Of a stretch of DNA of 64,000 nt, positions 2,851 to 61,104 are shown one piece after another (position 1 is the first letter of the stretch; every line of letters starts with the position of its first letter). A program made the translations under genes and the position numbers. The notes beneath the pieces were generated by a model that saw only the letters and a program-made list of their open reading frames with translations, ran no database searches and was not told where the DNA came from. Source of the DNA: Pelagomonas calceolata (lineage: Eukaryota); contig CAKKNE010000003.1 in NCBI GenBank assembly GCA_918797485.1, positions 4,526,001 to 4,590,000 on the forward strand. The letters run 5' to 3'.

Positions 2851-4315
2851 ATGCGCATCGCTCCCCTCGTCGCACTCCTTCTTCCCGGCTGCCGCGGCGG
2901 TGGCAAGGCCTCCAAGGCGCTGCTGCGGCAGTTCTGCGCGCGCGGCCTGCTCGCGGTGGACGATAGGCGTGGCGACGCGTGCGTCGATGCAGCGGGCACA
3001 TTCGCGGGCTGCCCGCCGGGCTGCGCGGCGACGACGCGAGGCGGCGGCGGCGCGCGCTGTGTTCACAAGAAACGTCCCTGCGTGGCGCCGGCGCGGACGG
3101 CGTGCGCGCGCGACGGCTGGTGGCTCGAGCAAAGCGACGAGGCGGCGCGCGGCGACGTGTGCCGCAAGCCCGGCGGCGGCTTCGAGTGCCCCGCCGACTG
3201 CGAAAAGCGGAACGCGACGTGCGTCGGCGGCGACAGACGGCCCTGCCGGTCGGCGGCGCGGCCGCCCCGGCGCGCGTGCGCCGATTGCGCCGAGGCGTGG
3301 GACGCGCCGCTCACGGCGGGACCGGCGCTCGCGCGGCGCGTCGACGCGGAGTTCGTCGTGAGCCACTGCGGCTACGACCTGAGGTGGCTCGCCGACGCGA
3401 TGGCGGAGCTGCGCGCCTGCGGCGTCGACGTCCGGCGCACGACCGTCTACTCCAAGTGCGGCCGGCCGCCGCGCAACGCGCCGAACGGGTCGATCCTCGA
3501 GACGCTGCCGAACGTCGGGCGCTGCGACCACGCCTACGCGATGCACGCGGCGCGGCGGTACGACCGCCTCGAGCCGCTGGTCTTCTTCCTCAAGGACTCG
3601 TCGCGCTACGGGTCGCGCGCGGACTACCGCCGGCTCAACGTTGGCCTCTGCGGCGTCGCGCGCGCCGCGGCGGGGCCCGTCGGCTTTGGCTGCGGCCGCC
3701 GGCCCTACGTCGACGGCTCCGCGTACCACTGGGCGCCCGCGCTGCTCGCCTACAGCCTCATCGAGGTCCACGCGCACGCGTGGGACCAGGCGGCGCGGCC
3801 CGCGGCGGCGTTGGACTTCTTTGGGCCGTTCCCGACGCTGGGCGCGCTCCTCGCGGCGACACCTGGCGTCCTGCGCGCTGACGAGCTCCAGCGACGCGCC
3901 GTCGTGCCCGTCTGCTACGGCGGCACGTTCGCCGCAGTGTGGATATCATTGAGCGCGTAGTGACCCTTTCGCCACGACGCCATCGACGAAGGCACCGTAA
4001 TTTTAAGTTCCGCACAGGTTTGCCGCGCGCCGGGCCTCCGTCCGCCGCCGCGCCCGCGCCGCCTACGCGGCGCTCGCGGCGCGCCTTACGCGTGGCGACA
4101 ATATCATGGAGGGTTCCATGGTCGAGAGGCTCTGGGCAGCGCTCCTCGCGCCGCGGCACCCCGACCCGCACGCGCGGGCCCGGCACCTCTGCGCTGCCAC
4201 GCGCCACTTCGCCCGGCCCCACGGGTATGCCGGCATGCTCGTCGGCTGCAGCTGCTCGGCGCCCCGGGGGGACTTGCGGACCTGCGCCGCGAGGCATTCG
4301 CGCGTGGCGACGTAG
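2851..4315 (+). CDS. Secreted protein with Cys-rich repeats and DUF3431-like domain; intron 3927-4017
   Basis: Signal peptide; ETLPNVGRCDHAY and VFFLKD motifs; removing GT..AG intron 3927-4017 joins the frame to MEGSMVERLW (ORF 4106-4315). Confidence 0.75.
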
Positions 4316-4448
4316 TTTGGTGTGTACTTGGTCTTTTCATACTAGTAGATGACTCCCTGCTCTTCCCCTCTCTTTTTCTTGGGATATTTCTTCCTTAATA
4401 GCGTCGTGCCGATGTTAAGGAGTTGTGCGTCCTTTGGCGAGAGAGATA

Positions 4449-4535
4449 TGAAGTAGAGCCCATTTTGCATCAAAACGGACGCTCACGGGAAAACCCGTTC
4501 GCTAACCGTTTGGATGCAAAATGAGCTCTACTTCA
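4449..4535. repeat. Short hairpin element with core CATCAAAACGG...
   Basis: Near-perfect inverted arms TGAAGTAGAGCCCATTTTGCATC / GATGCAAAATGAGCTCTACTTCA; core matches 52605-52709. Confidence 0.8.
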
Positions 4536-4639
4536 ATTATATTACGACCGAAATCCATGGTTCTGGGTGGCCGATTTTGGGGGTCTAATGATTTCTAGTA
4601 TATTTCATGACTAGGGGGGTATTTCGAATATATAGTTGA

Positions 4640-4705
4640 GTTAGACCCGCCACGTCATCAAAACGGTTCACTGCGTTCACCGTTTAGACGCGTGGCGAGT
4701 CTAAC
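4640..4705. repeat. Short hairpin element with related core
   Basis: Arms GTTAGACCCGCCACG / CGTGGCGAGTCTAAC around CATCAAAACGG...CCGTTT. Confidence 0.65.
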
Positions 4706-5084
4706 CACGTAATCATATTAGATTACGCTTATATTATAATTTTCACGACAGTTTCAATATATTTAAACCTTCGATAATTTTGCACGCACAAGATCTTATA
4801 ATCATTCCGCCAAGATTCCGATTAAACTTCAATAAGATCTTGGAGTTCATCAAGGGGATAGATTTGATGATGATGACACTTTGGCCATAAAATTCACCAC
4901 ATCCTGCATCAACTTCAAGAAACTGTTGGGTGGTAGAGCGTCCTCGAGGCCGTGGGCTTGGCCCCGCCGCCGATGGTTCGGGGGCGAGGTGTTGTTAACG
5001 GTCTTTTGGGAACTAACACCTTGGACTCATGCGGTAAAACCCGTAGCTAAGCGAAAACAGTCCCACGCCCTAGCGCGACCTCGC

Positions 5085-5323
5085 AGGACCACGCGGCCGC
5101 CCTGCTCAAGAATCGCCTTTACCGTCGCTGGGGCATCAAGACCGCGCGCGAGTACGCCCGGATCAAGATCGACGGCCTCCGGCTCGTCGGCGGCAACCCG
5201 GACTTCACCAACGCGCCCGGGCACGGCAACGACGACACACGCTTCTACGACCGGCAGCAAGCTTACGTACACGCTCGCGGGGGATAGCTCCCCCGACACC
5301 CCTCCCTAGGCGCCTGACTATAG
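5085..5323 (+). mobile_element. 3' fragment of a putative non-LTR retroelement
   Basis: Matches 24608-24835; encodes ORF end ...LYRRWGIKTAREYARIKIDGLRLVGG...HARGG*. Confidence 0.6.
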
Positions 5324-5470
5324 GTATTTGAAACCCATCGTGGCGCCGCCGGCCGGCCTGTCGGCGCGTGCGCACTCCTCGTGGTGGGATTTGTGGTAGT
5401 GAGGTGGTAGTCAGCTCTGCATGCCTAGGGCCCAACTTGGATAGATGGACAGCTTGAACTAAGACTTTTC

Positions 5471-8101
5471 TTATTGCATTGAGCGCCGCGCCCGCTTTCG
5501 GCTTCGCACGAGGAGCGCGCACGCGAGGCCGGCTGCGATGCCCGCGACTCCGCGTGCTCGCGAGAAGACACTCGGTCGATCTCCGCCGCGGCGGATGTAG
5601 GCCATAACCTCGTCGCCGTGCCGCCTGGAGGCGAGGGCGCACAAGGCCGAATTTTTGCGCGATCGTTCGTACCGCCGCGAGCGCGTGATGTGCGCAAATT
5701 GTGCGCCGGCGTCTGCCTCGGCGAGGAAGACGGCGCTCGTCGCCGTCGCCTCCTGCTCGTCGGGGCCCCGCAGCGTCCAGGAGGCGTAGGGAAAGGCGAG
5801 CTGGTCGCGGCGGTGTCCCCAGCGGCGGTATTCGTCAAACCAGGCGCAGCCGAGCGCCGAACTCTCGTTCCGGTAGAGGTCGCGGAGGTGCCATTCGCCC
5901 TCAGCCAGCGGCGCGTCGCGCGGCAGGCCCGCCGCAGCGTACGCGCGGAGCTGGCTCAGCGCGGCATCCGAAGCAAGGCCCAGCAAGTGGACGCACCGCG
6001 CCTCTTCGTGCGGCGTCCCGCGAGCCGGGTGCCGCGGCGACGTCCACGCGGAACCGCGAGCGAGCAGCTCGTCGTGCAGCAGGCGCCACGTCCACTCGAG
6101 CGTGCTCGGGTGAAGCTTGGCGTCGAAGTAGAGCAGATACCGCGCGTTCGGGACGAAGCGGTGCGCGAGCATCTTCGGAATGCGGGTGTTCTGGGCGGCC
6201 GTCGCGAACGGTTGAAGTGCCTTCGGGACACGCACGACGCGCCACGGTCCGTGGTCAACGCTGTGGCACCGCCGGGCGCCGTGCATCGCGGCGATGCGGC
6301 GAGCCGCCGCGAAGTCGACGAGTGCGATCCAGCAGCTCGCCGCGCCCAGCCTATTCTCGAATTCTAGCAGCCGCGCGTGCTTGGGTTCCAGCGTTTTAAG
6401 GTGCTCCAGCGAGTCGATAGAACCAAAGAGCGCCGTGACGACGGCAAGCGTGCAGCGCCGCCCGCCCGCGGCCGCCGGCGCGTCGAGCGGCGGGTTGATC
6501 GACGAAAATGAGAGGCTTCCCGAGCACTCGCCGTCCCGCGCGCCGTCGCCTGGCGTGTTGCCCAGTTTCGCCCTCAGCGACGCCCTCAGCGACGATCTCA
6601 GCTCCCCCGTGTCCGTGATGTCCTCGACGACGTAGATCTCCCCGGTCGTTGGATTCCGGTGCACGCCGCGCTCGGCGACGACTTGAACCACGCGCGCGCA
6701 CGAGATCCGCCGGAAGCCGCGCGACACGACCGCCTGGATTTGCGTTGATTCAACAAACGCCGCGTGCCGCGCGTCCGCTTTGTCGAGGTCGAGGCAGACG
6801 CTCGGCATGAGGTGCGAGCAGTCCTCGCAATGTCCGAAGCTGTGAACCGCAAGGCTCGAGCCCGCGCGTGGTGGTGGTAGGCACGCGGCCAGCCCCGCGC
6901 CGAAGGCGGCGTGCGCCGCAACGACGTCGCGGCACAGCCTGGAAAGCGCCGCGTCCGTCCGACGCCGCGCGTCGTGGGGGAACGTGAGCGCGAAGATCAG
7001 GCCGAGCCGGTCGGCGACGTCGACGTCGAGCATGAGCGAATCGCGGCCCTCGGCGCGTCGCGCGAGCGCGACGAGCGCCGAGAAAGACGAAAACTGCGTG
7101 CCGACGAACACGGCGGCGCGGAGACCGAGCTCGAAGTCGACCTGGCCCTTGACGTCGTCGCCGCCGTCGGGCCCGGATGCCAGCGCCTCATCGACGTTCC
7201 CCAACGTCGCCTTGGCGTGCAGGCTAAAGCGCGGGCAGCTTCGATGCTTCCGAAGGTCGGCGTCGATTGCCCTGATGCGCGCGCGGTCCGCCTCGCCCAA
7301 GACGAAGACGTCGAGCGTCTTCAACGACGACCGACCGCGCGCGACACCAGCCAGCGCCGTGCACGCAGCGCGCGCGTACGCGCGCGCGTCGAGGCCATGC
7401 GCGCTCCGCACAAAGTCCTCGTCCGCGCGCCAGTGGATCGCGACGGCCGCGTGCTCCTTCGCGCGCCCGGTCGCCGCCGCGAGGCGCCGTGAGACCTCGT
7501 GCGCGGCGCGACGGATGCGCCGCGCCGATGAAAACGCCGCGTTGACGCTCGTCAGGAGGTCGAGGCTCCGGCGCGTGTCAACCACGAGCTTGGTGCAGCA
7601 GTCCTCCTCGCCGCCCAGCGACCAGACGCCGCCCCGAAGGTCGTAGCGCCGCGCGACGTCGCCGCCGGGCCCGAGCTGCGACGCGGTCGTCGGCCAGAGC
7701 GCGCCGGCGAGCTCCGGCGCGCGCCCCTCGCTGCGCGTGTCGACGACGCAGACGCCCGCCCTTCGGAGGCCCTCTACCACCCTCTCACGATCGTAGACGG
7801 CGTCGAACGGGACCGTGCCTTCGTAGTCCTGGTAGCAGCCTGCGCGGTAGCCGCACCGCCGCCGCGTTCGGAGAAAGGAAGGCAGCTCGACAGCCGCGCC
7901 GAGCAGCGCCGCGATAACCGCGTCCTGGACGATGCGCATCCGCTGGTTGTTCAGGCCCTTGCGCACCGCCGGAATTCGGACGACGCCGCTCACGCCTGCA
8001 CCGCAGGTTGTTGCGGCGTGGTAGGCCGGCGCAACGGCCGGGCAGGCGGGCGACGGCGCCGCTGCGGCAGCCGCCGCCAGCGTAAAGAACACCGGCCCCA
8101 T
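5471..8101 (-). CDS. O-fucosyltransferase-like plus DUF616-like glycosyltransferase fusion, C-terminal TM
   Basis: 876-aa ORF with signal peptide; GLNNQRM, AIHWRADEDF, FVGTQFSSFS (O-FucT); VVTALFGSID, YLLYFDAK, RRDQLAFPY (DUF616). Confidence 0.8.
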   Translation of the reverse strand: MGPVFFTLAAAAAAAPSPACPAVAPAYHAATTCGAGVSGVVRIPAVRKGLNNQRMRIVQDAVIAALLGAAVELPSFLRTRRRCGYRAGCYQDYEGTVPFDAVYDRERVVEGLRRAGVCVVDTRSEGRAPELAGALWPTTASQLGPGGDVARRYDLRGGVWSLGGEEDCCTKLVVDTRRSLDLLTSVNAAFSSARRIRRAAHEVSRRLAAATGRAKEHAAVAIHWRADEDFVRSAHGLDARAYARAACTALAGVARGRSSLKTLDVFVLGEADRARIRAIDADLRKHRSCPRFSLHAKATLGNVDEALASGPDGGDDVKGQVDFELGLRAAVFVGTQFSSFSALVALARRAEGRDSLMLDVDVADRLGLIFALTFPHDARRRTDAALSRLCRDVVAAHAAFGAGLAACLPPPRAGSSLAVHSFGHCEDCSHLMPSVCLDLDKADARHAAFVESTQIQAVVSRGFRRISCARVVQVVAERGVHRNPTTGEIYVVEDITDTGELRSSLRASLRAKLGNTPGDGARDGECSGSLSFSSINPPLDAPAAAGGRRCTLAVVTALFGSIDSLEHLKTLEPKHARLLEFENRLGAASCWIALVDFAAARRIAAMHGARRCHSVDHGPWRVVRVPKALQPFATAAQNTRIPKMLAHRFVPNARYLLYFDAKLHPSTLEWTWRLLHDELLARGSAWTSPRHPARGTPHEEARCVHLLGLASDAALSQLRAYAAAGLPRDAPLAEGEWHLRDLYRNESSALGCAWFDEYRRWGHRRDQLAFPYASWTLRGPDEQEATATSAVFLAEADAGAQFAHITRSRRYERSRKNSALCALASRRHGDEVMAYIRRGGDRPSVFSRARGVAGIAAGLACALLVRSRKRARRSMQ

Positions 8102-9339
8102 CTGGGCAATAATTAAATAGGCCGTGGGCAGCCCCTGCCTCTAGACTAGAATACTAGAATGCCTACGCGAGTCCCCTGCGCGAGCGCTGGACGTCGGATC
8201 CGCTTTGTTGCGTTCCTCGTGTACTCTGATGCATCTGTGCCGCTTGGCGCAGCCCCGGAGGCGCTGCGTGCGTTGTGAGAGGCCTAAGTGCACCTAGGCT
8301 CATCGGAGCCAGTTTTCGCCGGCGGCGCGCGTTTCCGCCGCCCGCGACCCTCCCCCGGCGTCCACCGAGTCGCGGCGGCCGGGCCACAGGCCGGCGGTGC
8401 TCCACGGCTCGGTTTCTTCGACTTGCGCGGCAACGAATTGGTTGCATATACCCGCTGCGCGCAGGCCTCCTCGCGGCGCGTTGAACCTCGCCGGCGCCGG
8501 CGGCCAGTCCGAGCCCGAAACAAAGACAAGAGACATTCTTGCATCTTGATGGCGGGTCGAGCCCGGAACACGGACGGCACCCATCCTCGGGCATCGAGTG
8601 GTGCGCGTTCGGTGGTATCCGGCCCGTTTCCTGAAGTTTTGCCGCCGGCATGGCGGCGAGCCTCATTTGCCTGCGACCGGACCGACCCTACGGAGCTCGC
8701 GGAACTACTCGTCGGTCTCGACCTAGGAGGCGTCGGGGACGGCGGCATGCCGCCCCTCGCAACCTTCGTCGGGCCGGCCGAGCTTTCGTAGGCCCTCCGA
8801 ATCGCCGGGGCATCCATTGAACCCATTAGTTCCGTTCCGACGAGTTATTGTCAAGGGTCGTCTGGGCTGGGTCGGAGCCGAGCTCCCCACCAAAAAATAT
8901 GTGTCGAGGGCATGCCCTCAATCATTGTCAAAGGCCTGGTGTGCGAGGGCATCTCTCTCAGCACTTGATTTCCGGCTCGTCGTAAAAGAGGAGCCAGCGG
9001 CCAGTTCCACATCCTGACGGGGGTCGTCCCAAAAAGAGGGGGGGGGCGTGCGAGTCCATGCGACTCAGCCCTTGCGTCCTAGTCCAGCCGGACGGGTGGG
9101 CCCGGGGGGAGCGGGAGGGGTACGGGGAACCCTGCGACGTAACTAGCCTGAGCCTAGTAGTAAGTAGTAAAGTGAACTTGGTGCACCACAGAGCCACTTT
9201 TAGCCTGTCCCGCCATAGCTTTTTGTACGATTACCGGCGGCTGCTCGTCTAGATACCTGACCACGTTTGGTTAGATAGGGTTCGTTACGGATCCGAGTCC
9301 CCGGCCCGGGGCCGCGGCGGCCGCTCGTACATTAAGCAA

Positions 9340-13996: not shown

Positions 13997-14287
13997 TAGC
14001 CTAAGTAGGCGCCGTAAAAACACCGGGGTGAACCTAAACTTGAAGTAAGTTCACTTCAGGCGCGTCTCTAGTGCGCGTGGTCCGGGGGCCCTGGGGTTGG
14101 CGCCCGTTGTGGCAACGGCCTCTTTTCCCACTTATAAATCTCCCAAATTTTATCTTAGCTTCACTATCCTAGTCTCATTTATCTTAGTTAAATACCCGGA
14201 TAGAATAGGCCTAGTGAATACGGTACCAGCTTGTACCGGTACTGCTAGCGGGGATCATCTTGGCTAGATCTTGGCTGCCCGCGCAAG

Positions 14288-15432
14288 ATGAGGCACGCGT
14301 GCTCCTTCGCGCTTTTCGCCACCTTCGGCCGCCTGCCCGCCGCAGCAGCGCCTGGCAAAGCCACGAAAAATCTCTGCGCGGCCGCGGTCGTCCTGCCGTT
14401 CAACGCAACGCGACCCTTTGACGCCGCCGGCCGCGCGAGCCTGGCCCGGAACCCGACCTGCACCGCGCGCTTCGGCGAGATCCGCACCGTCCGCGGGCGC
14501 CAGCGCGAGCGGCTGACCGTCGGCTACAGCTACTACTGCGACGTGCACCACTTGGAGCACAATGTGCGTCTCTGGAACACATTCCCTGCCGTTATTCTCG
14601 ACCACGTCCACTTCTTGATCGTCGATGACGGGTCTCCGGACGAAGCGCGAGCGGCGCCCGTCGTCGCTCGCAACGTGGAAGCAGCGAGCGGGTCTCCGGC
14701 GTCCCGCTCAGATTGGCGCTTTGGGCGAGCCCCATCCCCAACGCAGGCGTCACGGTCGTCGAGATCGAACAGGACCTCGCGTGGAACATTGGGGGCGCTC
14801 GGAATTTGCTCTTCGCGGTGGCACCGACCGATGTGATCTTTGTCATGGATATGGATACTTTCGCCCCATGGGAGCTCCTCGAATGGGCGATGGGGCAACT
14901 CGAGCCGGTGCGCGAGAGCTGCTTGGTCATCAACGCATTTCGGCGACTTGCGCCCCGATGCCCACTCCCGTGCCCGCATCCGGCCGTCATGCTCTTAACG
15001 AAGCTGAGCTACTGGCATATCGCCGGCTGCGATGAAGATCTCGTTGGCCGTTATGGGGGCACCGACCCCCTGTTCAGGCACAAGACCTCGGTCATGAGAT
15101 CGTGCACCACGACTCATGCCAAAAACTTGGGCGATATGCCGTTTCTCCAGGTCATCAAGCGTAATATAGGACCACGCAAGACCAAAGCGAATGGAAACAA
15201 GAAGATTGGGCTCGTCGCAGCAAAAATTAACGGCACGCGCCCGTGGGCGACGAGTGTTCTCCGCTTCTCGTGGTACGTAGCGTTCTCTACCGTACCGGCT
15301 TCGGCTTCGGTCCCGGCTCCGACTCCAGTTCTGGTCCCGGCTCCGACCAAAGCGACGTCCGGTACCCCTTTGCTTCGCAGAGGCGCGGTCTCATGGTGGA
15401 GACGCTGGATAACCAGGCGACTGAGGTCATAG
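14288..15432 (+). CDS. GT2/GT7-like glycosyltransferase with one short intron (probably 14688-14746)
   Basis: FLIVDDGS in ORF 14288; WNIGGARNL, VMDMD, PHPAVMLL, AGCDEDLVGRYGGTD in ORF 14713; resembles the last domain of 10367-13282; donor site uncertain. Confidence 0.7.
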
Positions 15433-15590
15433 GTGAATCCCTGCATTTGTGTATAGCATTTATTGCAAAGAAGAGTTCACTCATTGTTACTGTGTTTCGT
15501 GTTGATCGGGATCTCCCCAAGGCCGGAGCCCTGTTGACTCTTTGGAGTAACATTCTTCCTTACCTTCCCTTAGCTTTAATTAGAATGAGG

Positions 15591-15809
15591 TGAAAACTCC
15601 CCTAGATATATATCTTCAACGCCGTAGCCCCCTATCGCCGGATCTATGGCTACATTACTCTCGCCTATCAGCACGCTATACCAGCCGGCACGTGCCCGAG
15701 CCGGTATTTCCCTATATCCCGTATCTTCTTGCTTATCCAAGTGGATCAAGCCCGGCGCTAAGTAGCCGCCGTAAAAACACCGGGGTGAACCTAAAGTAAG
15801 TTCACTTTA
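15591..15809 (+). mobile_element. Second interspersed repeat, possibly a TG..CA LTR
   Basis: 3' part recurs at 14001-14058, 26797-26903 (-) and 30716-30731; ends in GTGAAC-N9-GTTCAC then TTCA or TTTA. Confidence 0.5.
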
Positions 15810-15879
15810 CTGGGGGGAACAGCGGGAAACGACCCTACAAAGCCCAAGTGAGGCTAGCCCCATAAGTAACCTACATGTC

Positions 15880-16253
15880 CAGGGTAGAAATCAAAATATT
15901 ATAGGAGTAAACCTCGGATATTTATGCCGCGTCAGACTGAAGTTCAACGTAAAGTTGAAGTAGAGGGAGGGGGGTTAAATCAGCAAAACCCGTCACCTAG
16001 GTCCAAAACCAGACCTAAACGGGCGAAATTCGGTGTAATAATGATCCCACAGGCCTCGAACTGTGCCTAGGGTGGTCTGTGGGGGGCTCAGGAGGCGGAT
16101 GTTGAGCATCGCGTGTTACCCTAGTTACGCGCCAGAGGGGGGGTAACGCGCGCGCGCGGAATTTTTAGGAGGTGTCTGCCGGCCGAAATGATAGTTAGTT
16201 AATTAATAATATTCCTATGGGTGCACCCAGCCCTATGTTTGATTTCCACCCTG
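15880..16253. mobile_element. Non-autonomous hAT-like element related to the introners
   Basis: TIR CAGGGTAGAAATCAAA / TTTGATTTCCACCCTG; perfect 8-bp TSD TACATGTC at 15872-15879 and 16254-16261. Confidence 0.9.
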
Positions 16254-16693
16254 TACATGTCTAGCATCCTAAGCGCAAAATCTTGCACCTGGGGTCCTGG
16301 ACGCCTGTAAATTCGGGTTTTTAGCCTCAAAAGTGCGGAGAGAGCCGCCACGCGTGATTGGCAGGCCACTGCAGAGCCTGGAAGACAACATGACCGGAAA
16401 TACAGTTATTTGCGACGCCTTACACTAAAAAAAAATTCAGGCGCCCGCTCGAAATCACACTCACGTCTGAGGTCCGCGACCGGTCTCACACTCATCCAAA
16501 CGGGTCTCACACTCACATCTAACACCCTGGTCCACCCCCTTTGTACCTGGAGCGATGCAAGCTGTAAGTGCCCGGGCAGCCCGAAAGTCAGCGCACAACG
16601 TGTCACAGCCACGGCGTGCGGACAGAACACCCGCTGCTGCCGTGGTGACGAACGGGCAGGCCAGCTCGCGCGAGCACGCTCTTTGGGCCCAGG

Positions 16694-18747
16694 ATGCGCT
16701 CGACAATGTTGATGCTGTGGGTGACGTCGACGTCGGGGACGACCATCTGCTCGACTGTGCGCGATTTGTGGGAGCGCGGTGAGCTGAGCACGCTCGCATT
16801 TGACGAGGTGATGAGGCTGGACCCCTGCCGCACCAACGTTTCGACATCATTCTCGCCTACGAGCAGTTCTCGACGGTCTCTAAAGTATTGGGGAAAATCA
16901 AATAGTAAGCAAAGTCCAGCCAAAGCGGATCCGACCAAAGCGTGGGCGTTCAAGCTGCTGGGCGCGCGCGCGGCCGAACTGGACGGCGAGTGGTCGCAAA
17001 TGCAAACGCCGACGCTGGCCAACTTCGACGTCCCGCAGTATCATTTGGCGTTCCAGGCCCTGTGGCTCGGTCTCACACGCACCCTGTTCACGGCGCGGAT
17101 CCTCCCCGTCGACCCCGCCGGCGGCAAGCACCGGAACCATCGCTGGACCATCGCGCGGTACTACATCGACAAGGCGCTGCGCGCGCCCGAGGTCAAGGCC
17201 CTCGGCGACGGCAAGGTCTGCGCCGAGGTCGGGGACAAGCACTTCCTCCACACGTACTTCCCGACCTGTGCGGAGATGCTCGCGGTCGACCTCAAGGATC
17301 CGAAGGCCGACGTCTTAGTCGACCTCGTCCATCCGGACTGGACCGACCCACGGATCAAACAGGCACACTTCGACCTCCTCGTCGTTGGCGAGGTCATGGA
17401 ACACATCGACCGGGTCGACGTCGCGCTCGCCACGTTGGTTCGCCTCCTCAAGCCGGGCGGCACCATCGTGTGGACTACGCCGTTTCTCATGCAGTACCAC
17501 GCCAATCCCGGGGACGAGAATCGCTACTCGCCGACCCGCGTCAACGCCCTGTTCGACCGCGCCGGCCTGGACACGGTGAAGTCCGACGGCGTCGGCAACT
17601 GGCTCGCCGTCACGCTCTACCTCGCTGGCTTCGGAACCGACGAAACACACTCCTCCGAGCTCGACGCGCCCGATCGCGACGGATCCCGACCGTACTGGAT
17701 CGACGTCATCGCCGTCGGCCGTAAGCGCACCTCGTCGTTGGATTCACGCGCAATGCCGACCGCTGAAACCCCGGCTCTCTCGTTAGAGGCTGCGCTGCGT
17801 CGCGTCCAGCCCGGTAGCAACAGGCGCGCCTGGAAATCCATGGTCGCCCCTGCCAAGTTGCAGCATCTCTACGAATCTGTGCTGCACAATATTTCCGTGG
17901 CGGAGCACCCTGTTGATGGTGCCTTTGTTGAGTGTGGTGTGTGGCGGGGTGGGGCCACCATGATGATGTTGTACGCGGAATTTGCAGCCCTCTCCCGCGA
18001 CGGCAGCCACCCCCATCGAGATGTCTGGCTCTTTGACACGTTTGAGGGTATGCCCGTGCCCGGCAAAAGGGACGGTAGTCGTGCCGCTCGTCGCTGGGAC
18101 AACGTGCAAGCATCTATTGCAAACAACAGCGCTGCGCGGGAACGGACTGCTGGCTGGAGTGCTGAGGACATGGCCACTGGTGGCGATGGGGGAGAATACG
18201 TCGATACCAGCGGCCAGGTGCGATGGAATTATGGGCCCATCGACATCGTACGAAAGAACATAGAGAGCACGACATATCCGTCCGAGCGTGTCCGCTACAT
18301 CAAGGGAAAGGTCGAGGACACGCTCACGAGCCCCGGCCAGGTACTTCCGCAGAAGATCGCACTGCTCAGGCTCGACACGGACTGGTACAAGTCAGTGCAT
18401 GAATCAAGTTCCAGGCGCCTTCGATGCGCACCACGACAGTATGTCTACTGCCGTACACCCGCCCAGCCAACGCGGTCGCATTGTTGAAATGACTTTGAGC
18501 CCTCGACTCAGCTGGTTTATTTGCACACAGGTACAAGTCGACCAAGACGGAGTTCGAGGTTCTCGTACCGCGGCTGTCCCCTGGCGGGCTGCTAATAGTT
18601 GACGACTACTGCGCGTGGCAGGGCGCACGCCAGGCAACAGACGAATTCCTCGCCACGCAAGGCACCAACTTTTTTATCCAGCACATAGGTAAAGGCGACG
18701 ACGGCGGCCGGCATGGTGTGTGCTTCGCAATCTGGAAAAAACGGTAG
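16694..18747 (+). CDS. Class I methyltransferase + TylF/MycF-like O-methyltransferase fusion; intron 18385-18530
   Basis: FDLLVVGEVMEHI..LLKPGG; FVECGVWRGG, WLFDTFEGMP; splicing gives LLRLDTDWYKST..GGLLIVDDY; start uncertain. Confidence 0.8.
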
Positions 18748-19176
18748 CCTCCAGTCCTTTTCCTCGTCCATGGATAAAAGTAGCATAGGAATTTTTATAC
18801 TTCATGTCCCTTGCTGACGGATGACACATAAAATATACTAAGGGCCCCACTGGCATGCCTTTGCTGGAGTAAGTGCTCAGGCTGAGGCTCAGAGGCTGGA
18901 GTGTTGCTCTTGGGAAGCCGGGGGCGTGGGGCGAAGCTGCCAAGCGGCGTGGTGTGGAGCTCTGCCTCGCCTCCTCAGTCCTCGATTTCTAATTTATTTA
19001 TTGCTTTGCTAAAGCTAGCTGCCTAGCCACCTCGCCAACTTGAACGACGCGGGGCCTGCTTGACCGCACCGCACGCCCGTCCCGCCCCGGCCCTCATACA
19101 CTGTCTCGCCCCTAGTGTTAGATTTACTTATCATATGATTCACTGGCACGTTTATTTATCTGGACAGGTCCCGGAC

Positions 19177-21991: not shown

Positions 21992-22598
21992 CTAGGTTGC
22001 CATTTACCCGACCGTGACTCGACTCATGTAGCGCATGCGCTACATGAGTAAACGGGCTATATGGGTAAATGGGCTATATAGGTATTTGGGTTATATGGGC
22101 GTTTGGGTTATAACCCAAATCCCAAATAACCCAAATACCCATATAGCCCAAACACCCATATAACCCAAATACATACCCATATAGCCCATTTACTCATGTA
22201 GCGCATGCGCTACATGAGTCTCGGAGGGGTTATTAACTCCAATCGCGGCCCGGGGTCAGTAACCCGGGTAATTACCCGTTAGTACGGGTTATATTAACCC
22301 TATTAACCCGGGATCTTATGGACCGTCCGGACGCCCGCCGCTTAACACGGGGGCGGACCCCAAATTTGAGATTCGAGTTCCTAGCCACTTTCCGGGGGCG
22401 ATTTTGGCTGTGGGGTCCCAAAGGGTCCCTTTGTACGCCCCGAGAGGCTGAGGCCCGCGCCAGTGGCCAGTGAGGCCCCCTCCCCTACCCCTCTATAAGA
22501 TCCTGAGGTAAATAATCCGTACTAACCGGTAATTACCCGGGTTATTAACCCCGGGCGGCGCCAGGGGTAAATAGCCCCTCAGGTAAATGCCAACCTAG
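21992..22598. mobile_element. hAT-like MITE (TIR CTAGGTTGCCATTTACC) carrying a nested foldback element
   Basis: TIRs; subterminal TAACCCGG repeats; right half matches 26950-27105; TSD degenerate. Confidence 0.8.
22022..22219. repeat. Foldback element with palindromic ends
   Basis: 28-bp perfect palindrome ACTCATGTAGCGCATGCGCTACATGAGT at both ends; inverted TGGG(C/T)TATA arrays inside; CTCG duplicated on both sides. Confidence 0.85.
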
Positions 22599-26644: not shown

Positions 26645-27105
26645 CTAGGTTGCCATTAACCGGTTAATAACCGGTAATTTGCCCATTATCACTCCTCGGA
26701 GGGGATCCGGGGTAAATAACCCGCTCAATAACCCGACGGGTTTTCGACTAAACCCGTTTAGTGAGATTAGCGAAAGACCCCCCCGGAAGAGCGGATTGAA
26801 GTGAACTTACTTTAGGTTCACCCCGGTGTTTTTACGGCGCCTACTTAGCGCCGGGCTTGATCCACTTGGATAAGCAGAAAGATACGGGATATAGGGAAAT
26901 ATCAGCTACGGGCCCAAGGCAAGTACCAAGTCATGTGGCCCGGCGCGGCCCAGGCCCGCGCCAGTGGCCCGTGAGGCCCCCTCCCCTACCCCTCTATAAG
27001 ATCCTGAGGTAAATAACCCGTACTAACCGGTAATTACCCGGGTTATTAACCCCGGGCCCGGGCGGCGCCAGGGGTAAATAACCCCTCAGGTAAATGGCAA
27101 CCTAG
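26645..27105. mobile_element. hAT-like MITE
   Basis: TIR CTAGGTTGCCATT / AATGGCAACCTAG; perfect 8-bp TSD CCTGTCTC at 26637-26644 and 27106-27113. Confidence 0.9.
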
Positions 27106-28953: not shown

Positions 28954-29642
28954 TCCCATGCCACAGTGTGGGTAACATACGGGGCACACTTGCCCTGCAC
29001 GTCCATTTGTATGCGCCTATAATAGCCTAAATTTCAAAATGCATCCATATTATGTACATATTTATTTATTTATCATGATTTATTTATTTAAGGGGCCGGA
29101 ACCCGATTAAATCGGGGGCTGTAGTGCCTCCCCATTAATAGCCTAAAGGGCCAAACTAGCTGCGAACGAGCCTAAGGGGATGCCTCACCTTCTGGCCGAG
29201 TGTGGGGCCCTGAAAAAGCGAGGGGGCGGAATGGCCACCACGCGAACGTCGCGCCAGTCACGGTGGCGTTTCGTTTTGGGCACCTCACCCCATCTCGAGG
29301 GGGGCACCTCCGTGGCAAGCTAGTGTCGCCGTGTGCTTAGGATGCCCCTGGGACCCAGCAAACGCCATTTGGCCCTTTAGGCTATTAATTGAAAATCTCA
29401 CCAATTTGGGTGCCGGCCCCGTATTTATTTATTTATTTTATTTATTTAGGGCCCGCCGGAACTCCCCGAGTCGGCCCAGAGGTCATCGGCTGCTGACTCA
29501 GGCTTATCCCCGCCTTCGCGTTCGAGCATCTTAATCTCGACAAGAACACGGACACGTTCTTTGCGGCTTCAGGAATCCGCGACCCACGCGGGACTTGGCC
29601 GGGGCGTTATTATTTCAATGATATTTATCTATACTCGTATTA

Positions 29643-38506: not shown

Positions 38507-39599
38507 ATGCGCGGCGCGCTGGTTGCCGTCGCCGCCGGCGCGGCCGCGTGGGCGCCCGCGTTTCGTTACGACGCGCTGCCGCGACGACCCACCAGACGCG
38601 CTGCCGCGACGACCCACGGGGACCAGATAGTCGTGGCCCTGACGCGCGAGGCCGGCAAGAACGGCGGCCTCGCGCGCGCGCTCGCCGAGCATCACATAGA
38701 AACGGTCGAGGTGCCCTGCGTCTCCACCCAGAGGACGCCCCAGATGGACGCCCTTCTTGATAGCGCGCTGCTTTTTGCAGAAGACCCCTGGGACTGGGTC
38801 GTCGTGACGTCGCCCGAGGCCGCCAAGACGTTTGGCGCGGCGGTCGCGCGCGCGGGCCTCGGCGCGACGCGCGATGCGAAATGGAGGGCCTTCCGGCTCG
38901 CGGCCGTCGGCGGCGCGACGGCCGCGGCGCTGGACGCGTGTCAGGATTTGAGGCCGTGGCGCGGGAGTTCGTTCACGCCCGCGACGGCGACGGCCGCCGC
39001 ACTTGCGAAGGCGCTGCCCGACGACTCGGGCCGGCGCGTGCTCTTCCCCGCGTCGGCGCTCGCCGCGCCGACCTGTGTGGAAATCAAAATTTTACGGCGC
39101 GTTCGTGCTGAATCATCGCGTCGACCTCCACGCCATCGACGCGACACCTGCTCGATGGCGTGGCGATGTCGGTTCTTCACCGCTCGACGGAGCCAGCGCG
39201 GCCACGTCATCGCCGAGAAATGACTTAGTGAAGAATTGTCGGGTGCACCCGACACACTGGTTGATTTCCACACAGGCGCCGACGCTCGAGGAAGGGCTCA
39301 AGGAGAGAAACTTCGCCGTGACACGCGTCGACGCGTACACGACGGCGCCGGCGCCGTGGTCTCCTGAAGATGCCGCGGCGGCGGCCTCCGCGGATGTCGT
39401 CGCCGTCGGCTCGCCGTCCGCCGCGCGCGTCTGGGCCGCGCGCGCTTCCGTGAACGTCCGCGCCGCGTGCGTCGGCGCGACGTCGGCCGACGCGTGCGTC
39501 GAACTGGGCTTCGGGCGGGACCGCGTCTTCGCGCCGGCGAAGCCGGGCCTCGCGGGCTGGGCGGGCGCGGTGCGGGACGCCGTCGCGGCGCTCGCCTAG
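38507..39599 (+). CDS. hemD: Uroporphyrinogen-III synthase, plastid-targeted; intron 39065-39275
   Basis: VALTREAGKN, WVVVTSPEAA, LAAVGGATA, VLFPASALA|APTLEEGL, RVDAYTT, VGSPSA. Confidence 0.9.
39073..39275 (+). mobile_element. Introner element (best-preserved copy)
   Basis: Perfect 15-bp TIR CTGTGTGGAAATCAA; 8-bp TSD GCGCCGAC; removing one TSD plus the element restores the frame. Confidence 0.95.
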
Positions 39600-42905: not shown

Positions 42906-43523
42906 ATGGCGCTCGCCCAACGGCTGTGGAAGGCCATGAGCCGCCATTACCAAAAGAACGTCGCCGGGCGAGTATCCCTGCCTCCCCGTAGACGCCAAGC
43001 GCTCGCGGCACGCGCCGGCTCCGACGACGACGCGTTCGAGAGCCGGCTCCTCGCGCGCGCCTCGCCGCCTCGACGCGCGCCGCCGCAGGTCCCTCTCCGA
43101 GTTCGGGCTCAAGTACGACGACATAAGAATTGAAAGTGATGCGGACTACGCAAAGGCCCTCGACCGCCTGCAGCAGCGTGTGCAGATCAAATTTCACGCG
43201 CCTTCCGCGCCACTCGTCGAGAGAATCTCTACGTCGCACAACCGTCCGCGCCAGCAGCACGACCGCATCGCCGCTGTAGAAAGGAATTGTGAGAACTTAT
43301 TCGCGGATATACCGCACTCACCGGTTTACACGCAGGCCTGCCGCACGCGGAGCTCCAGCTACGCGCGCGGCGCATGAAGCGCGCCTTCGACGTGTCCTTC
43401 AAGCGCAAGGCGCTGCCGCCCGACCTGCGGGCGCTGCAGAAGCCTCTCGAGGGCTACGCGGGGCCCCTGATCGAGGAGGCGAAGGCCCGTCGGGTGGAGC
43501 GCGAGCTGCTCAACACCTTCTAA
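42906..43523 (+). CDS. QCR7: Cytochrome bc1 complex subunit 7 (14 kDa); introns 42968-43088 and 43166-43335
   Basis: Spliced product ...YQKNVAGSLSEFGLKYDDIRIESDADYAKALDRLPHAELQLRARRMKRAFDVSFKRKALP...; two GC-AG introns. Confidence 0.85.
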
Positions 43524-48200: not shown

Positions 48201-50346
48201 TCACGCCCTGAAAGCACTTCTTGCACTGGAAGTAGGAGGCCTTGCCGCCATAGGCGAATTCGAAGGCTGGCTGGGGAGACGCGCGCGGAGGCGAGCGACG
48301 TCGGCCCGTAGTGCCGCGTTCTCCGCGGTCAACAGAGCGACCCGTGCGGAGAGCAGCGCGTCCTCCGCGGCGGAGAGCGGCGCGTCCTCCGCTGCGGAGA
48401 GCGGCGCGTCCTCCGCAGCGGAGAGCGACGCGTCCTCCGCGGGGGATGGGAGCGCGGCATCAGCCACGGGGTTCGACGCGTCCCAGTCCCAGTCCCAGCC
48501 CAGGAGGTCGTGGAGGAGGCGCTCGTGCCAGAGCAAGTCCTCGGCCATCTGCGGCTCGAAGCCCAGCAGAGCCATGGTCGCGTTCGGATCGTTCAGGACG
48601 TGGCGCGCCTCTTTCTTGTGCTCCTCGACATTCTTGTGGCCCGCGCCTTCGTTCTTGAACTCGGCGTACGGGTCCGCGTGGATCCAGCGCGGCTCCATGC
48701 CCAAGAACGAGGCGAGCGCGGGGCCGCACGTCGTCTCGCCGAGGCAGCGCTCGAAGCGCAGCACGAAGACGTGGTCCGCGCCCCAGAGGCGCTGGAAGAG
48801 CTCGACCGCGTAGACGTAGTGGACGAGCTTGAAGTACGATGCCTGGGTCTCGGACACCTGCAGCTTCCGCAGAGCGAACGGGGACGCGACGAACGAGCAG
48901 CCGCGCTTGTCCCACAGGCCCGGATCCGACCGCGCGTCGGCGGGGCAGCCCGCCTGTCTGAGATCCTTCATCAGCTTGGACCAGTTCTGGCGGAGGTAGC
49001 TTGCGCGGCCGTCCGCGTCGACGCGCGCCGCGAAGTTCCACCTGGGTGGCAATCAAAGTATTCCAAGGTCACCGCGACATGGGTCCAACGAATCCGTCGT
49101 CTGAACGAGGTGACATGCCTAGGCGAACTCCATGAGGACGTCAACAGCTGTCCGCCCGTGAAAGAACGAGCGACATCGACCGGGGGGAAAGGGCCGAGAT
49201 ATGGAGCTTTTTTAATGTTTCAGGCCGGTCTCACTCGGTGGTTGATTTCCACGCGGAGTCCCGCGGGTGCCGCGTCGAGAGGACGATTTTCGCCGCGGGG
49301 GCCTTGTAGTGGATGCTCAGCATGACCTCGACGCGCGTGTGGTAGTCGGGCGTCTTGTCGACGAACCAGCGCGGCGTCCTGTCCGCGGGGCCGTCGTAGT
49401 ACCGCAGGCCCGCGCCGTCGACGCAGCGGTCCGCTGTGGGCGCGTCGCACGCGCACAGCCCGGGGCGGTCGTACCCCGCGAGCGACTTGGAGAAGCGCCG
49501 CAGGTAGTCGCCGTACTGCACCGAGCCCTTGCCGTTGCCCTTGAAGTACAGGCCCTCGCCCGGATGGCCGTCGTTTCCCTCGGCGCCGACGACCAGGTGC
49601 CCCGGCACGCTCTTCGCGAGGCCCGCCCGCAACGACGTCGTGCCCGAGCGGCTCCAGCCCGCGATGAACACGTTCGGCGACGCGAGCCGCACGAGCGCGC
49701 CGCCGACCTGGGTGGAAATCAAAAGTTCAAGGCCACTGCAACTTGGGTCAAACGAACCCGTTTCGACCGTGGATTGTCAATCATAATAAAGAGGATGTCC
49801 GCAGCTATCTGCTCGTGAAGAAACGAGCCATCGACCGAGAAACAGCCGAGATATGAATACTTTCGATTCGGGTGAACACCAAACTCAGTGGTTGATTTCC
49901 ACACAGCCGCCGACGCGGACGCACGCGCGCTGGTCGTCGAGTTTCAGCGACGCGACGCGCCTCGCCGTGGCGTTGACCATCCACGGCTCCACCTCGACGG
50001 GCACGAGGCCTCGCGCGCGGGGCTCCGCCGCCGCGTACGCGTCGCCGCCGCCGTGGAAGGCCTCGACCGCGCACGACTCGAGACGCGGCGCGTCCGAGGC
50101 GACGCTCAGGCGCTTGCCGCCCTCGCCGCGGAGTCTGCGGCTCCAGGACGCGACGAGCCGCCTCGAGCGCCGCGCGCGGCACGGCGGCCGGCGGAAGACG
50201 GCGGCGACGAGCAGCAAAGCGGCCGCGCCGCGCGCGGACCGACGCATTGCGCGCCACCGCCGACGCGGCGACCGCGGCGAGCATGGGCTCGTTTCATCCG
50301 CCTCGACGCTGTCCTCGGCGAGGACCACCTGCAGCTTTTCCGCCAT
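48201..50346 (-). CDS. Membrane sulfotransferase-like protein; introns 49708-49914 and 49042-49264
   Basis: PNVFIAGWSRSGTTSL; VDKTPDY; AKIVLSTRHP; VFVLRFE; both introner removals restore the frame; SAAEDAPL repeats near the C terminus. Confidence 0.8.
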
Positions 50347-56688: not shown

Positions 56689-58569
56689 ATGAGCGGCCGC
56701 CTCAGCCCGGCGAAGATGCTGGGCGCCTGGCTCCACGCGAACGGCAGCGACGGCGAACTGAGCCTGCACGACGACGCGGAGCCCGCGAGCGTCGAGGAGG
56801 AGAACGCGAGCCTCAAGCGGCGCGTCGCCGCCCTGGAGGCCACGCTGCGGCGCGTGCGCGGCGAGCGGGCCGACCTCGAACGCGTGCGACGGGTCATGAA
56901 GCGCAACTCGAGACTGCGGCGCAAGCTCGGCCTCGCGCTCGTCGCGTCCTACGTCCTCTACTACTGCTGCTGGAACCTGAGCTTCCTGGCGGGCTACAAC
57001 AAGCTGCGGGGGCGGCCGCGCGACTGCGCCGTGACGCGCTACGGCGGACTCATCCTGGAGGGCGGCGGCGTGAAGGGCGTCGCGTACGGCGGCGCGGCGG
57101 CGGCCTTGGAAGCTTATGGTTTATTGGATCGGCGGCACGTGACCCACTTCGCGGGCACGTCGGCCGGCGCGATGATGGGCGCGCTCCTCGCGGCGCGGAC
57201 GCCCGCCGAGGACATCGCGCGCTATCTCCTGGATTTCCCGTTCGAGCGGCTCATGGATGGCGGCCACGCGCTCGCGAACGCGGGGCGCCTGCAGCGGAGG
57301 CTAGGCTGGTTCCGGGGCGACGAGGTCGAGCGGGCGATGCGCGAATTACTCGACAAGGCGGGCGTCGGCGGCAACGCGACGCTCGGCGAGCTGGAGAAGG
57401 CCCGGAAAACGACGCTGCGGCTGTCCGTGACGGACCTGACGAGGGGTCGCCACGCGTGGCTCGACGCGACGAACATGAACAACGTGTCCGTCGCGCGCGC
57501 CGGCGCGCGAATCACTTTCGCCGTGCCTCTCGCGGGACGCGCGGCGGCGTGTCGTTCGCCGCTCGAGTCAGCCCGCGCGGCCGGGTGTGCACCCGACCCA
57601 CCGGCTGATTTTCGCGCAGGCGCGCGCCGTGCGGGCCTCGTCGGCCGTGCCCTTCGTCTACCCGCCGGTGCAGCTCGGGAAGCGGCTCTTCGTGGACGGC
57701 GGCCTCGTGCGGAACCTGGCGTGGGACGCGTTCGGCCACTGGGGCGTCGCGCGGAAGAGCAACCGGAAGCGGCGGTGGGTCCCGCGGCGGCGGCGCGCGG
57801 TCCTCGCGCTGTCGATCCGGGGGCCCGACCGCGCGTGGGCCGAAGATTTTTCCCTCCGGGGGGGCGACGGCGAGGAGGAAGACGACGAGCCCGCGCCGCC
57901 GCGGCGGGCGTTCTTTCCCTTCTTCGCCGGTCCCGACGAGGAGCAGGAGACCCTGAGGCGGCGCGCCCTCAACCGGCGGGGCTTCGCCGGGCTCCGGGCG
58001 GGGCGAAAGGCAAACTTCACGGCGCCTTCGTGCCGAGTCATCGACCTCCGCGCCATCGACGCGGCGTCTGCTCGACAGCGTGGCGGCGAGGGGCTCTCGC
58101 CGCTCGACTTAGCCGGCGGAGCCGCGTCGTCGCCGAGAAACGAGTTTGCGAGATAATTATCGGGTGCGTCCGACTCACCGGTCGATTTGCGCGCAGGCTC
58201 TGGGCCTTTGGCACGAAGCTGCTGGAACTCGTCGCGTTCGGCGCGGACTCGCCGAACGCGCTCCCGCCGGACGGCGCCAATCTGGACGTGGTGAAGATCG
58301 ATACATTAGATGTCCAGGCGGCGGAGTTCGACCTGGGGTCGCGCGAACGGGCGCACCTCGTCGCGTCCGGCTACCTGTCCGTCGCGCGGCACCTCGAGGC
58401 CTGCGGCCACGGGCGGTCGCCCGCGCCGCCGCCGTGGCTGGTCGGGTTACTGCGGAACGCATCGCTGGACTTATACGAGCTCATGGCCAAGGACGCAGCT
58501 TTGTCGCTGCTGAAGCGCGGCATCCGGCCGCAGGAGGCGGTCAAGCCAACGGTTTATCCGGAGCTCTGA
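56689..58569 (+). CDS. Patatin-like phospholipase; introns 57493-57619 and 57991-58196
   Basis: EGGGVKG; AGTSAG; AVRASSAVP; FVDGGL; both splices restore the frame. Confidence 0.85.
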   Translation: MSGRLSPAKMLGAWLHANGSDGELSLHDDAEPASVEEENASLKRRVAALEATLRRVRGERADLERVRRVMKRNSRLRRKLGLALVASYVLYYCCWNLSFLAGYNKLRGRPRDCAVTRYGGLILEGGGVKGVAYGGAAAALEAYGLLDRRHVTHFAGTSAGAMMGALLAARTPAEDIARYLLDFPFERLMDGGHALANAGRLQRRLGWFRGDEVERAMRELLDKAGVGGNATLGELEKARKTTLRLSVTDLTRGRHAWLDATNMNNVSVARAGARITFAVPLAGRAAACRSPLESARAAGCAPDPPADFRAGARRAGLVGRALRLPAGAAREAALRGRRPRAEPGVGRVRPLGRRAEEQPEAAVGPAAAARGPRAVDPGARPRVGRRFFPPGGRRRGGRRRARAAAAGVLSLLRRSRRGAGDPEAARPQPAGLRRAPGGAKGKLHGAFVPSHRPPRHRRGVCSTAWRRGALAARLSRRSRVVAEKRVCEIIIGCVRLTGRFARRLWAFGTKLLELVAFGADSPNALPPDGANLDVVKIDTLDVQAAEFDLGSRERAHLVASGYLSVARHLEACGHGRSPAPPPWLVGLLRNASLDLYELMAKDAALSLLKRGIRPQEAVKPTVYPEL

Positions 58570-58600: not shown

Positions 58601-61104
58601 CTAGGATGAGGCGTCGGTGTCGTCGTCTGAGTCGGAGGCGTCTTCTTCTTCTTCCGCCGACGACGACTCAGAGGCCGACTCGTCGTCGTCGTCTCGCGCC
58701 GACTCGTCCCCCGCCGAGGCCGACTCGTCGTCGTCGTCTCGCGCCGAGGCCGACTCGTCGTCTTGCGCCGACTCGTCTTCCGACGAGGCCGACTCGTCGT
58801 CGTCGTCCCCCGCCGAGGCCGATTCGTCGTCGTCATTCTCGTCGGCGCTGTCAGAGTCGTCATCGTCGTCCTCGCCGGTACTCGAAGCAGAGCCAGAGGC
58901 GTTCTCGTCGTCTGACTCGTCCGAGTCCGACTCGGAGCTCGCGCCCGACCCGGATTCCACCTCTACCTCTTTTTGGCCCGGGCCCTCGGTAGGCGGCGTG
59001 ACCTGCCGGACGGGCGCCGCCAGCGCGTTGCGCTTGACCGCGCCGCGCGCGCGCGCGGCCGCATCGCGCGCGTCGCGCCCGCCGCGCGCCGCCCGCTGAG
59101 CCGCCGCGCGCGCGACCGCGACCGCGCCGTCGGCGGCCCTTTCGCACGCGCGCCGGAACTTGCGAGCGAGCGCGGCGAGGCGCTTGCGGCCGGCCCTCAG
59201 CGCCGCAGCGTGAGCTTTTGTCGCCGCGTCGCGCGCGACGCCTGGAGCGACCTCGTCGAGCACGATCCGCCAGCACGCCTCGACCCGATCCTCAAAAAGA
59301 CGCTCCTCCTCGTCCATCACTCTCGACGTCCAGAAGGAACGCCACCGCTCGACGTTGCCGGCGTGCGCGGGGCCGAGTCCCGAGGCGACGCATCGACACA
59401 CGTAGTCGACGCCCAGCGCGTAGGCGTCCCGAATGAGCGGGTGCGGCGGCGCGGGGTGCTTTTTGACGACGCGCTCGGCCGCCTCGGCCGCCTCGGCCGC
59501 GCGGCCCGCGCCCTCGGCGCGAGCGGCGGCGCGCAACGCCGCGGCGCACGCTAGCAGCGAAACTCGCAGAGGCCCATCGGGCGCCCTATTGGCCGCCCCT
59601 TCATTAATGCGCGCCAGCGCCGCCGCGGCCCGGCCGTTTCTTGGCGGAGCGGGCGGCTCCACCGCCGGAGCCAGAGGCCGATCAACGGGAACAATGACGG
59701 GGTGCGGGTCCGGCCGGAACCAGAACAACGGCTTCCGCAGGTTCTTCGGCCGGCGCTCGTCTTGTAGAGCCTCCTCGTTCTTTACGACACACTTGTCGCA
59801 CGCCACCTCGGAGTGGCAGAGGCCGTGGGCGGGAATGCCAAAGTTCGCGGGCCGGGGGTGCCACGGCGCCACGCCGCAGCGGCAGAAGAGGCACTCGGTC
59901 TTGTGTCGGTCGCCTCTCGACGCGAACGGCGCGACTGTCACCGAATGGTTGGCGTGCTGCAGCGCCCGGATCCAGTAGCGGAGCTGCAGCGCGGCCTTGG
60001 CGTCGCCGCCGGGCGCCGCGGCCCAGACTCTCCCCGCCGCCGCGCGCGAATCTTTCGGCGGCGCGGCCGATTCCGGTCCCCCGGGCGCCCCGGCGACTCC
60101 CGGCGCCAGCGGGCCCCCGGACGCGTCGAGCCGGAGCACGCCGTCGGCGCCGAACGCGCGGCGTGGCGCGAACGCCAGCGTCGCGGGGACGCGCTCGTCG
60201 CGTAAATCAAAAACGAGCGCGACCGCGTCGCCGACGGCGTAGGCCCACTTGCGGTCGTCGCCTGTGCATAAATCAAATTGTCGCGGCGCGTCCAACGACC
60301 TCCACGCCATCGACGCGACGCCAGCTCGATGACATGGCGAGATGGTCTATTGCCGCTCGTTCCAGCCAACACGGCCGCGTTCTCGCCGAGATGTGACTTT
60401 GTGAAGAAGTGCACCCGACTCACTGGTTGATTTGCGCACAGGTCGTCGCGCGGCCGGCCGACGACGAGCCGCAGCTCGAGGCGGGAACTTTCGAGGACGG
60501 CGAAGCACAGGACCCAGGCGTCGCCGAGGCGCCGAGCCAGCGCCTTCGCGGCCGCCGCCCGTTGCGCGGGGTCCGCCGCGCGCGCCGCCCAGCCGCGCTC
60601 GCGCCGCCGTCCCCGCGCAGGCGGCGGCGCGAGGACGTCGGCGTCCCCCCCACAGTCCGCGGGCGCGACGCCGGTCGCCGCTGCTCCAATGGCGCGCTCC
60701 GCGGCGCGCCGGCCCAGTCTCAAACTCAAGAAGCCGTAGCGCGCGCCCGAGCCCCGCACCAACCACCGCGTCTTTCCGCGGCGCTCCTCCTCGCTCACCC
60801 CCGGGTACCAGGCGCCGTCGTTGGCGAGCCGCGCCTCCAGGCTTGGGCCGTAGCGGCAGCGCGCGGAGGCGGCCCGCGACCAACCCGTGAGTTTTCCCTT
60901 TGGGCACGGCACGGCTGGTTTATCCGGGCGCGCGCCGGGCCGCACCTTCTCCGGCCGCGCCGGCGGCGTCTCGGACGGCTCGGGCAGCCGGAGCGCGGGG
61001 GCGAAGGGCGCATCTAGCAGGCCGGCTCCGGTCGCCGCCGGGTCGTCGTACGCGCCGCGGCAGTAGCGGCTCCGGAGCCCGGAGGGCGCGATTCTTGGCT
61101 TCAT
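58601..61104 (-). CDS. Hypothetical protein with Cys/His cluster and acidic repeat tail; intron 60262-60449
   Basis: Introner with perfect TSD GTCGTCGC joins ORF 59938-61104 to ORF 58601-60310; CLFC..HGLCH..CDKC; ESASARDDDD repeats. Confidence 0.65.

Follow-up and report, generated by a model that had tools for sequence, protein, structure and literature searches.

We consider it fairly probable that the 374-bp element at 15880..16253 (plus strand) of the window, meaning the whole 64-kb stretch of DNA that was analysed, belongs to the non-autonomous cut-and-paste transposons, probably to those of the hAT type, occurs in multiple copies, has ends related to those of introners and is itself unspliceable. 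It would be a distant cousin of the introners that kept an A at the second base of its tips, and not their parent. The element shares its ends with introners but is missing the terminal AG, and the change at this tip base is therefore likely to be part of what made such transposons into intron makers.

The element is a hAT-like MITE with CAG..CTG ends. It is bounded by a left TIR (15880..15895, plus strand) with the tip CAGGG and a right TIR (16238..16253, minus strand) that ends CTG; the TIR has the sequence CAGGGT(A/G)GAAATCAAA, is 16 bp long, and is complementary between the two ends at 15 of 16 positions. Exactly matching copies of an 8-bp target-site duplication, TACATGTC, stand on the left (15872..15879) and on the right (16254..16261). 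The palindrome GGGTGCACCC is found at 16219..16228, and occurs only one other time in the window, at 39241 in an introner, each time 10 bp inside the right TIR. The coordinates and motifs of the original prediction, including the shared palindrome, were thus all confirmed. No ORF of 90 aa is present inside the element among the ORFs listed.

In the available text of the source, the ends of hAT elements are characterized by an 8-bp duplication and by YARNG tips (PMC3014272). The 374-bp element has the duplication on both sides, while the empty site described below lacks both the element and one copy of the duplication; YARNG is matched at both tips, and the TIRs are short. It shares these features with non-autonomous hAT elements and MITEs of the Ac/Ds, hobo and Hermes type, but differs from them in having a single conserved palindrome, confined to its right end, instead of many short repeats. 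Its end may also resemble that of maize Ac. The related introners differ from hAT elements in that their CTG tips break YARNG, at base 2 only. In Hermes, a subterminal quasi-palindrome is bound by the BED domain, according to the text available (PMC10368747), and by analogy GGGTGCACCC is likely to be a transposase-binding motif. Pfam found no transposase domain in 33 stretches of the window (a subset of the listed ORFs), and no long element with matching TIRs was present among the matches listed, from at least 121 loci.

The element sits between two transcribed genes. The upstream gene (14249..15432, plus strand) has no Pfam match and contains an ordinary 59-nt GC..AG intron (14688-14746, plus strand, 8 reads), while the downstream gene (16575..18750, plus strand, the end coordinate being approximate) encodes Methyltransf_11 and TylF domains. 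In the approximately 6% of RNA run X21 that was read, bins 16024-16391 showed no depth of polyA RNA, and there was no splice joint at the element, in agreement with the intergenic location originally proposed. The few RNA reads at 15840-16023 carry several differences, and so derive from other copies.

The DNA of the window is GC-rich and eukaryotic, and is present in three cultured-organism runs and in many marine metagenomes. Together with TIR introns of about 200 bp and GT/GC donors, this would suggest a pelagophyte such as Pelagomonas calceolata as the source. In metagenome X4, one contig (depth 5.6, with a short side of 41 letters) skips exactly 382 bases, equal to 374 + 8. In the isolate run X2, depth across the element is 396-732, compared with 176-192 on unique DNA; three contigs of this run continue past 16253 into other flanks, and isolate contigs span the right junction. 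A 1627-bp X2 contig that matches the left end was considered as a possible autonomous element and rejected, because it runs outward and is therefore another flank. A further copy, L078, is 95% identical to the element. The further copies and the precise empty site indicate that the family has been recently mobile, is non-autonomous and is not a relic. In being short and non-coding, with TIRs, a duplication, similar copies and recent movement, the element is a typical MITE.

The L078 copy, the only other record of the MITE among the matches listed, has no duplication around it, and both of its flanks are coding-like. One flank (876-1247 of that contig) is an ORF that abuts the MITE tip and matches three unnamed proteins, which are 107-194 aa long and give E values of 1e-9 to 3e-5, the best match beginning at the tip and continuing onwards; no Pfam family was found for this flank. 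L078 was rejected as a clean insertion, since it lacks a duplication and its two flanks fit no single protein, and it is likely to be a chimeric contig. It nevertheless implies that CAG-tipped copies occur beside or within coding-like DNA.

The window also contains introners. A 203-bp CTG..CAG introner (39073-39275) forms, with its duplication, a predicted GC..AG intron (39065..39275, plus strand), which splits a HemD domain: positions 3-125 and 129-220 of PF02602 lie on either side, and excision joins the two halves. A 199-bp CTG..CAG introner with the tip CTGGG (49708..49906, minus strand) is a predicted GT..AG intron on the minus strand, and a 180-bp CTG..CAG introner of the TGCAT subfamily is located at 60262..60441. 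All three are flanked by 8-bp duplications. A 138-bp CAG..CAG element (18393-18530), which belongs to a one-way subfamily, makes up a GT..AG intron together with its 8-bp duplication (18385..18530, plus strand). In RNA, 101 reads with 36 different starts skip 146 bases at this GT..AG intron, and it is therefore spliced out as duplication plus element, in the manner of a pelagophyte introner. There is also an inverted and shortened 83-bp CAG..CAG introner (3935..4017, plus strand, predicted GT..AG), and three decayed introners, namely CTG..CGG at 49042..49256 (minus strand, predicted GC..AG on that strand) and CGG..CAG at 57501..57619 and 57999..58196 (both plus strand, predicted GC..AG). Degenerate introner remnants without an intact duplication occur at 43176-43335 and 46911-46997. 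The expectation that intronic copies would be CTG..CAG and intergenic copies CAG..CTG therefore holds for 39073, 49708 and 60262, but not for the two CAG..CAG introners or for the three decayed copies, two of which start, and one of which ends, with CGG.

The 374-bp element ends in TG on either strand. Since its right TIR ends CTG, it has no AG acceptor at either end, and without a terminal AG it would not be spliced out. Its duplication starts with TA or GA, depending on the strand, and so offers no GT/GC donor that could be co-opted, as it is in introners. Its excision restores no open frame.

The relation between terminus and location was examined using a metagenome scan with the shared right-end pattern, which itself contains the shared motif, and which gave at least 121 loci. 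Among the matches listed plus two window matches, 120 of 123 right ends are CAG and three are CTG; these three are the 374-bp element, the L078 copy and an introner (L118) whose acceptor is on the other strand. A search for paired elements, blind to bases 1-3 and allowing at most one mismatch in the duplication, gave at least 77 distinct elements. Among the matches listed, 75 of these 77 would form GY..AG introns, 54 of them on one strand and 21 on both. The remaining two are a copy with CTG..CAG ends whose duplication is damaged, and the 374-bp element itself, which among these 77 listed elements is the only one without an AG end on either strand. Every intact intronic copy among the matches listed has an AG end, and of the eight deviant introner tips listed, seven fall on the donor side, while the remaining one still ends TAG. 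A GT/GC donor is offered by 108 of the 111 distinct right flanks among the matches listed (background 31%). When duplication and element are removed together, an open frame of 40 codons remains on each side in 57 of the 59 testable copies listed; flanks were too short in a further 17, and the wrong strand was open by chance in 22 of 41. The proposed association is therefore seen among the matches listed, but L078, with its coding-like flanks, tells against a clean one. It is concluded that a change at the tip base is insufficient by itself, since the target duplication must in addition supply a GY. An unrelated family whose tips are CTAGG also has T at base 2, yet lies outside coding DNA.

The similarity of the element to introners is strongest at its ends. 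Compared with introner 39073, its left 16 bases are identical at 13 of 16 positions and its right 36 bases at 27 of 36, and over 16 bases the only mismatch between its right TIR and the left TIR of introner 49708 is at base 2. Alignments of the right 80 and left 60 bases to introners score better than all of 1000 shuffles, and weak similarity reaches about 70 bp inward of the right end (nhmmer E = 6.6e-4, a value that is partly circular). The interiors without TIRs gave no significant alignment when compared with shuffles (p = 0.06, or p = 0.42 without the palindrome), and a profile of introner interiors found no match in the element. As judged from the sequences, kinship is limited to the ends. 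The predicted subterminal relatedness thus applies to the right 36 bases and the common palindrome, and not to the interiors. The shared right-end pattern has no matches in viral contigs and none in prokaryote genomes. There are 32 viral loci with the left-TIR pattern, but none has a partner TIR and duplication, and they were taken as chance matches.

Trees of the ends were calculated with bases 1-3 removed, for 69 rows and then for 17 chosen rows, using 110 columns and no outgroup; they gave no order of families. The MITE pair (the 374-bp element and L078) is on a branch of length 1.1-1.5, and does not group with the CAG..CAG subfamily. The CAG..CAG copies group with the CTG-tipped 60262, nested among CTG families (89/96), which implies that their A would be a reversion. 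The data do not reject a tree constrained to unite the CAG..CAG copies with the MITE (p-AU 0.29 and 0.32). Given that the 374-bp element is a recent polymorphic insertion on a long branch, with no detectable homology to introners in its interior, it is best seen as a distant living cousin. The suggestion, as originally worded, that this copy represents the ancestral state is therefore not supported.

The one-way subfamily has the core TGCAT(A/G)AATCA, seen in six ends among the matches listed, of which four start with CAG, one with CTG and one with CCG. CAG is thus found at four of six left tips, compared with none of 17 unconstrained tips of the main family among the matches listed (Fisher p = 0.0017, for a comparison picked after viewing the data). 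In each of the four CAG..CAG insertions listed, the left duplication offers the GT/GC that one-way splicing demands, and two of the four have duplications with two mismatches. The four insertions, and the fact that the 18393 copy is spliced, make it likely that the A tip of this subfamily was copied by transposition. They also indicate that one T tip is enough, and so only one end has to change for intron status.

We suggest the following scheme. The 374-bp element bears the signature of cut-and-paste movement: it inserted with an 8-bp duplication, and at least one wild allele lacks it. A related transposase lineage, recognising the GGAAATCAA core of the TIR and the palindrome, would move both families. 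Removal of an introner as a duplication starting GT/GC plus an element ending AG would restore the gene exactly, as seen for 18385-18530 and predicted elsewhere. Base 2 of the tip would then set spliceability: with A at both ends there is no acceptor, with T at one end the introner works in one orientation, and with T at both ends it works in either. The shared TIR holds TTGAT and a pyrimidine run before its last bases, and so the remainder of the 3' splice signal may have pre-existed in it. With the hAT motif as the sole outgroup, A would have come first and T later, since YARNG is the motif of hAT ends and base 2 is the only position at which CTG tips depart from it. The original proposal, that a change from A to T at base 2 makes an intron generator, is consistent with the related ends, the hAT-type tip and the need for AG; its direction, however, comes from the superfamily motif alone, and the change does not suffice. 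More tentatively, one tip base could be the switch behind the pelagophyte introners. Three stages would then coexist in one genome, namely an unspliceable CAG..CTG hAT MITE, a one-way CAG..CAG introner that copies itself, and a two-way CTG..CAG family that took over, with each step from A to T doubling the number of exon sites open to harmless insertion.

It is also possible, though we think it rather doubtful, that the tips were already suitable. T at base 2 would have arisen earlier in the alga's lineage of elements with 8-bp duplications, or the transposase would ignore base 2, so that introners are simply the family of short CT..AG elements that got into GC-rich exons, and CAG forms are side branches or reversions. 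The CTAGG..CCTAG family (26645-27105 and 21992-22598) does have T at base 2 outside coding DNA, but no TIR core is common to this family and the introners. The nesting of the CAG..CAG subfamily among CTG tips, the presence of both tip types in the TGCAT subfamily, and the fact that the published hAT label depends on a match to hATv, a small and atypical haptophyte group, also fit such a history; against it, base 2 is the sole difference in the nearest TIR match, that of 49708 and the MITE, and the state found in the MITE is the one typical of the superfamily. We regard it as improbable that two MITE families of separate origin, without any ancestor-descendant relation, each came under selection to bind one transposase or similar ones, and share their ends only for that reason. 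The missing interior homology, the long branch, the different length and the flank GC (0.52 for the 374-bp element and 0.60-0.80 for the introners) would suit such an origin, but the identical spacing of TIR and palindrome and the weak similarity to about 70 bp are more simply explained by descent from related autonomous ends. Chance resemblance or an assembly artefact, which the shortness of the shared motifs might suggest, is refuted by the exact 382-bp empty site and the isolate contigs across the right junction, and opposed by the second copy and by the two occurrences of GGGTGCACCC at the same offset in 64 kb, and we give it almost no weight.

The window holds further repeats. The CTAGG..CCTAG family is a second MITE family: the element at 26645-27105 has an exact 8-bp duplication, CCTGTCTC, and begins 29 bp past the stop codon of a PC-esterase gene, and the copy at 21992-22598 is older. 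Since an element of this family ends TAG, the one at 26645-27105 could be a UTR intron. Fragments of the family occur at 14001-14058 and at 15694-15807, the latter adjoining the 374-bp element. The repeats at 15472-15839, to the left of the MITE, show heavy RNA on both strands from other loci and an X2 DNA depth of 3800-8200, and thus represent a high-copy transcribed repeat family. A long hairpin-like repeat with a palindrome at each end (22024-22230) is nested in the 21992-22598 element; 22040-22201 was considered as an element with target-site duplications and rejected, because its flanks are the repeated palindrome. A 341-bp inverted-repeat element at 29086-29426 has AT-rich flanks and internal 22-bp inverted repeats, and has no relatives among the matches listed (at least 121 loci). 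The region 1100-32100 carries a cluster of glycosyltransferase, methyltransferase (TylF and types 11, 22 and 24) and PC-esterase genes with few introns, which suggests a surface-polysaccharide island. Its GC content is comparatively low, at 0.54-0.62 in most bins.

The 374-bp element bears on how an ordinary transposon first turns into an intron maker. A living non-intronic relative, together with families that have zero, one or two AG-forming tips, makes this step testable, and the canonical CAG tip is a better bait for the missing transposase.

Pelagophyte introner elements were reportedly described by Huff, Zilberman and Roy in 2016. In the accessible text of later papers, 956 putative introners with TIRs are listed by Guerin 2022 (PMC9481584), and carried and co-opted splice sites of introners are described by Gozashti 2022 (PMC9860276). 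Gozashti 2025 (PMC12130899, supplement file 8 row 1080) gives a P. calceolata family, fam2, with 340 copies of 202 bp and a 13-bp TIR, annotated 'co-opt 5' carry 3'' and classed as TIR DNA/hAT through a blastn match to hATv-2N1_EHux; the portion available also mentions that de novo origin may occur in non-autonomous families. hATv is a small haptophyte group, whose T. lutea member has ORFs without a Pfam match, as far as the available text goes (PMC10138859). Matched by description only, fam2 is likely to be the 203-bp family of the window, and its row names no non-intronic CAG..CTG relative, one-way subfamily or tip change. In the literature text available, no CAG-tipped non-intronic relative and no base-2 switch was found, although the 2016 paper may mention non-intronic relatives. 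The hAT link and the splicing mechanism are known already, whereas, on this basis, neither the relative that cannot be spliced nor the one-way subfamily seems to have been reported. Like the pelagophyte introners of the accessible text (PMC9481584, PMC9860276), those in the window are about 200 bp long, with TIRs, GT/GC donors co-opted from the duplication and a carried AG acceptor. The 374-bp element has related ends, but differs from them in its CAG..CTG tips, its donorless duplication, and its intergenic and untranscribed position. It is an ordinary hAT-like MITE whose kinship is informative, and provides a real and testable refinement of a known mechanism.
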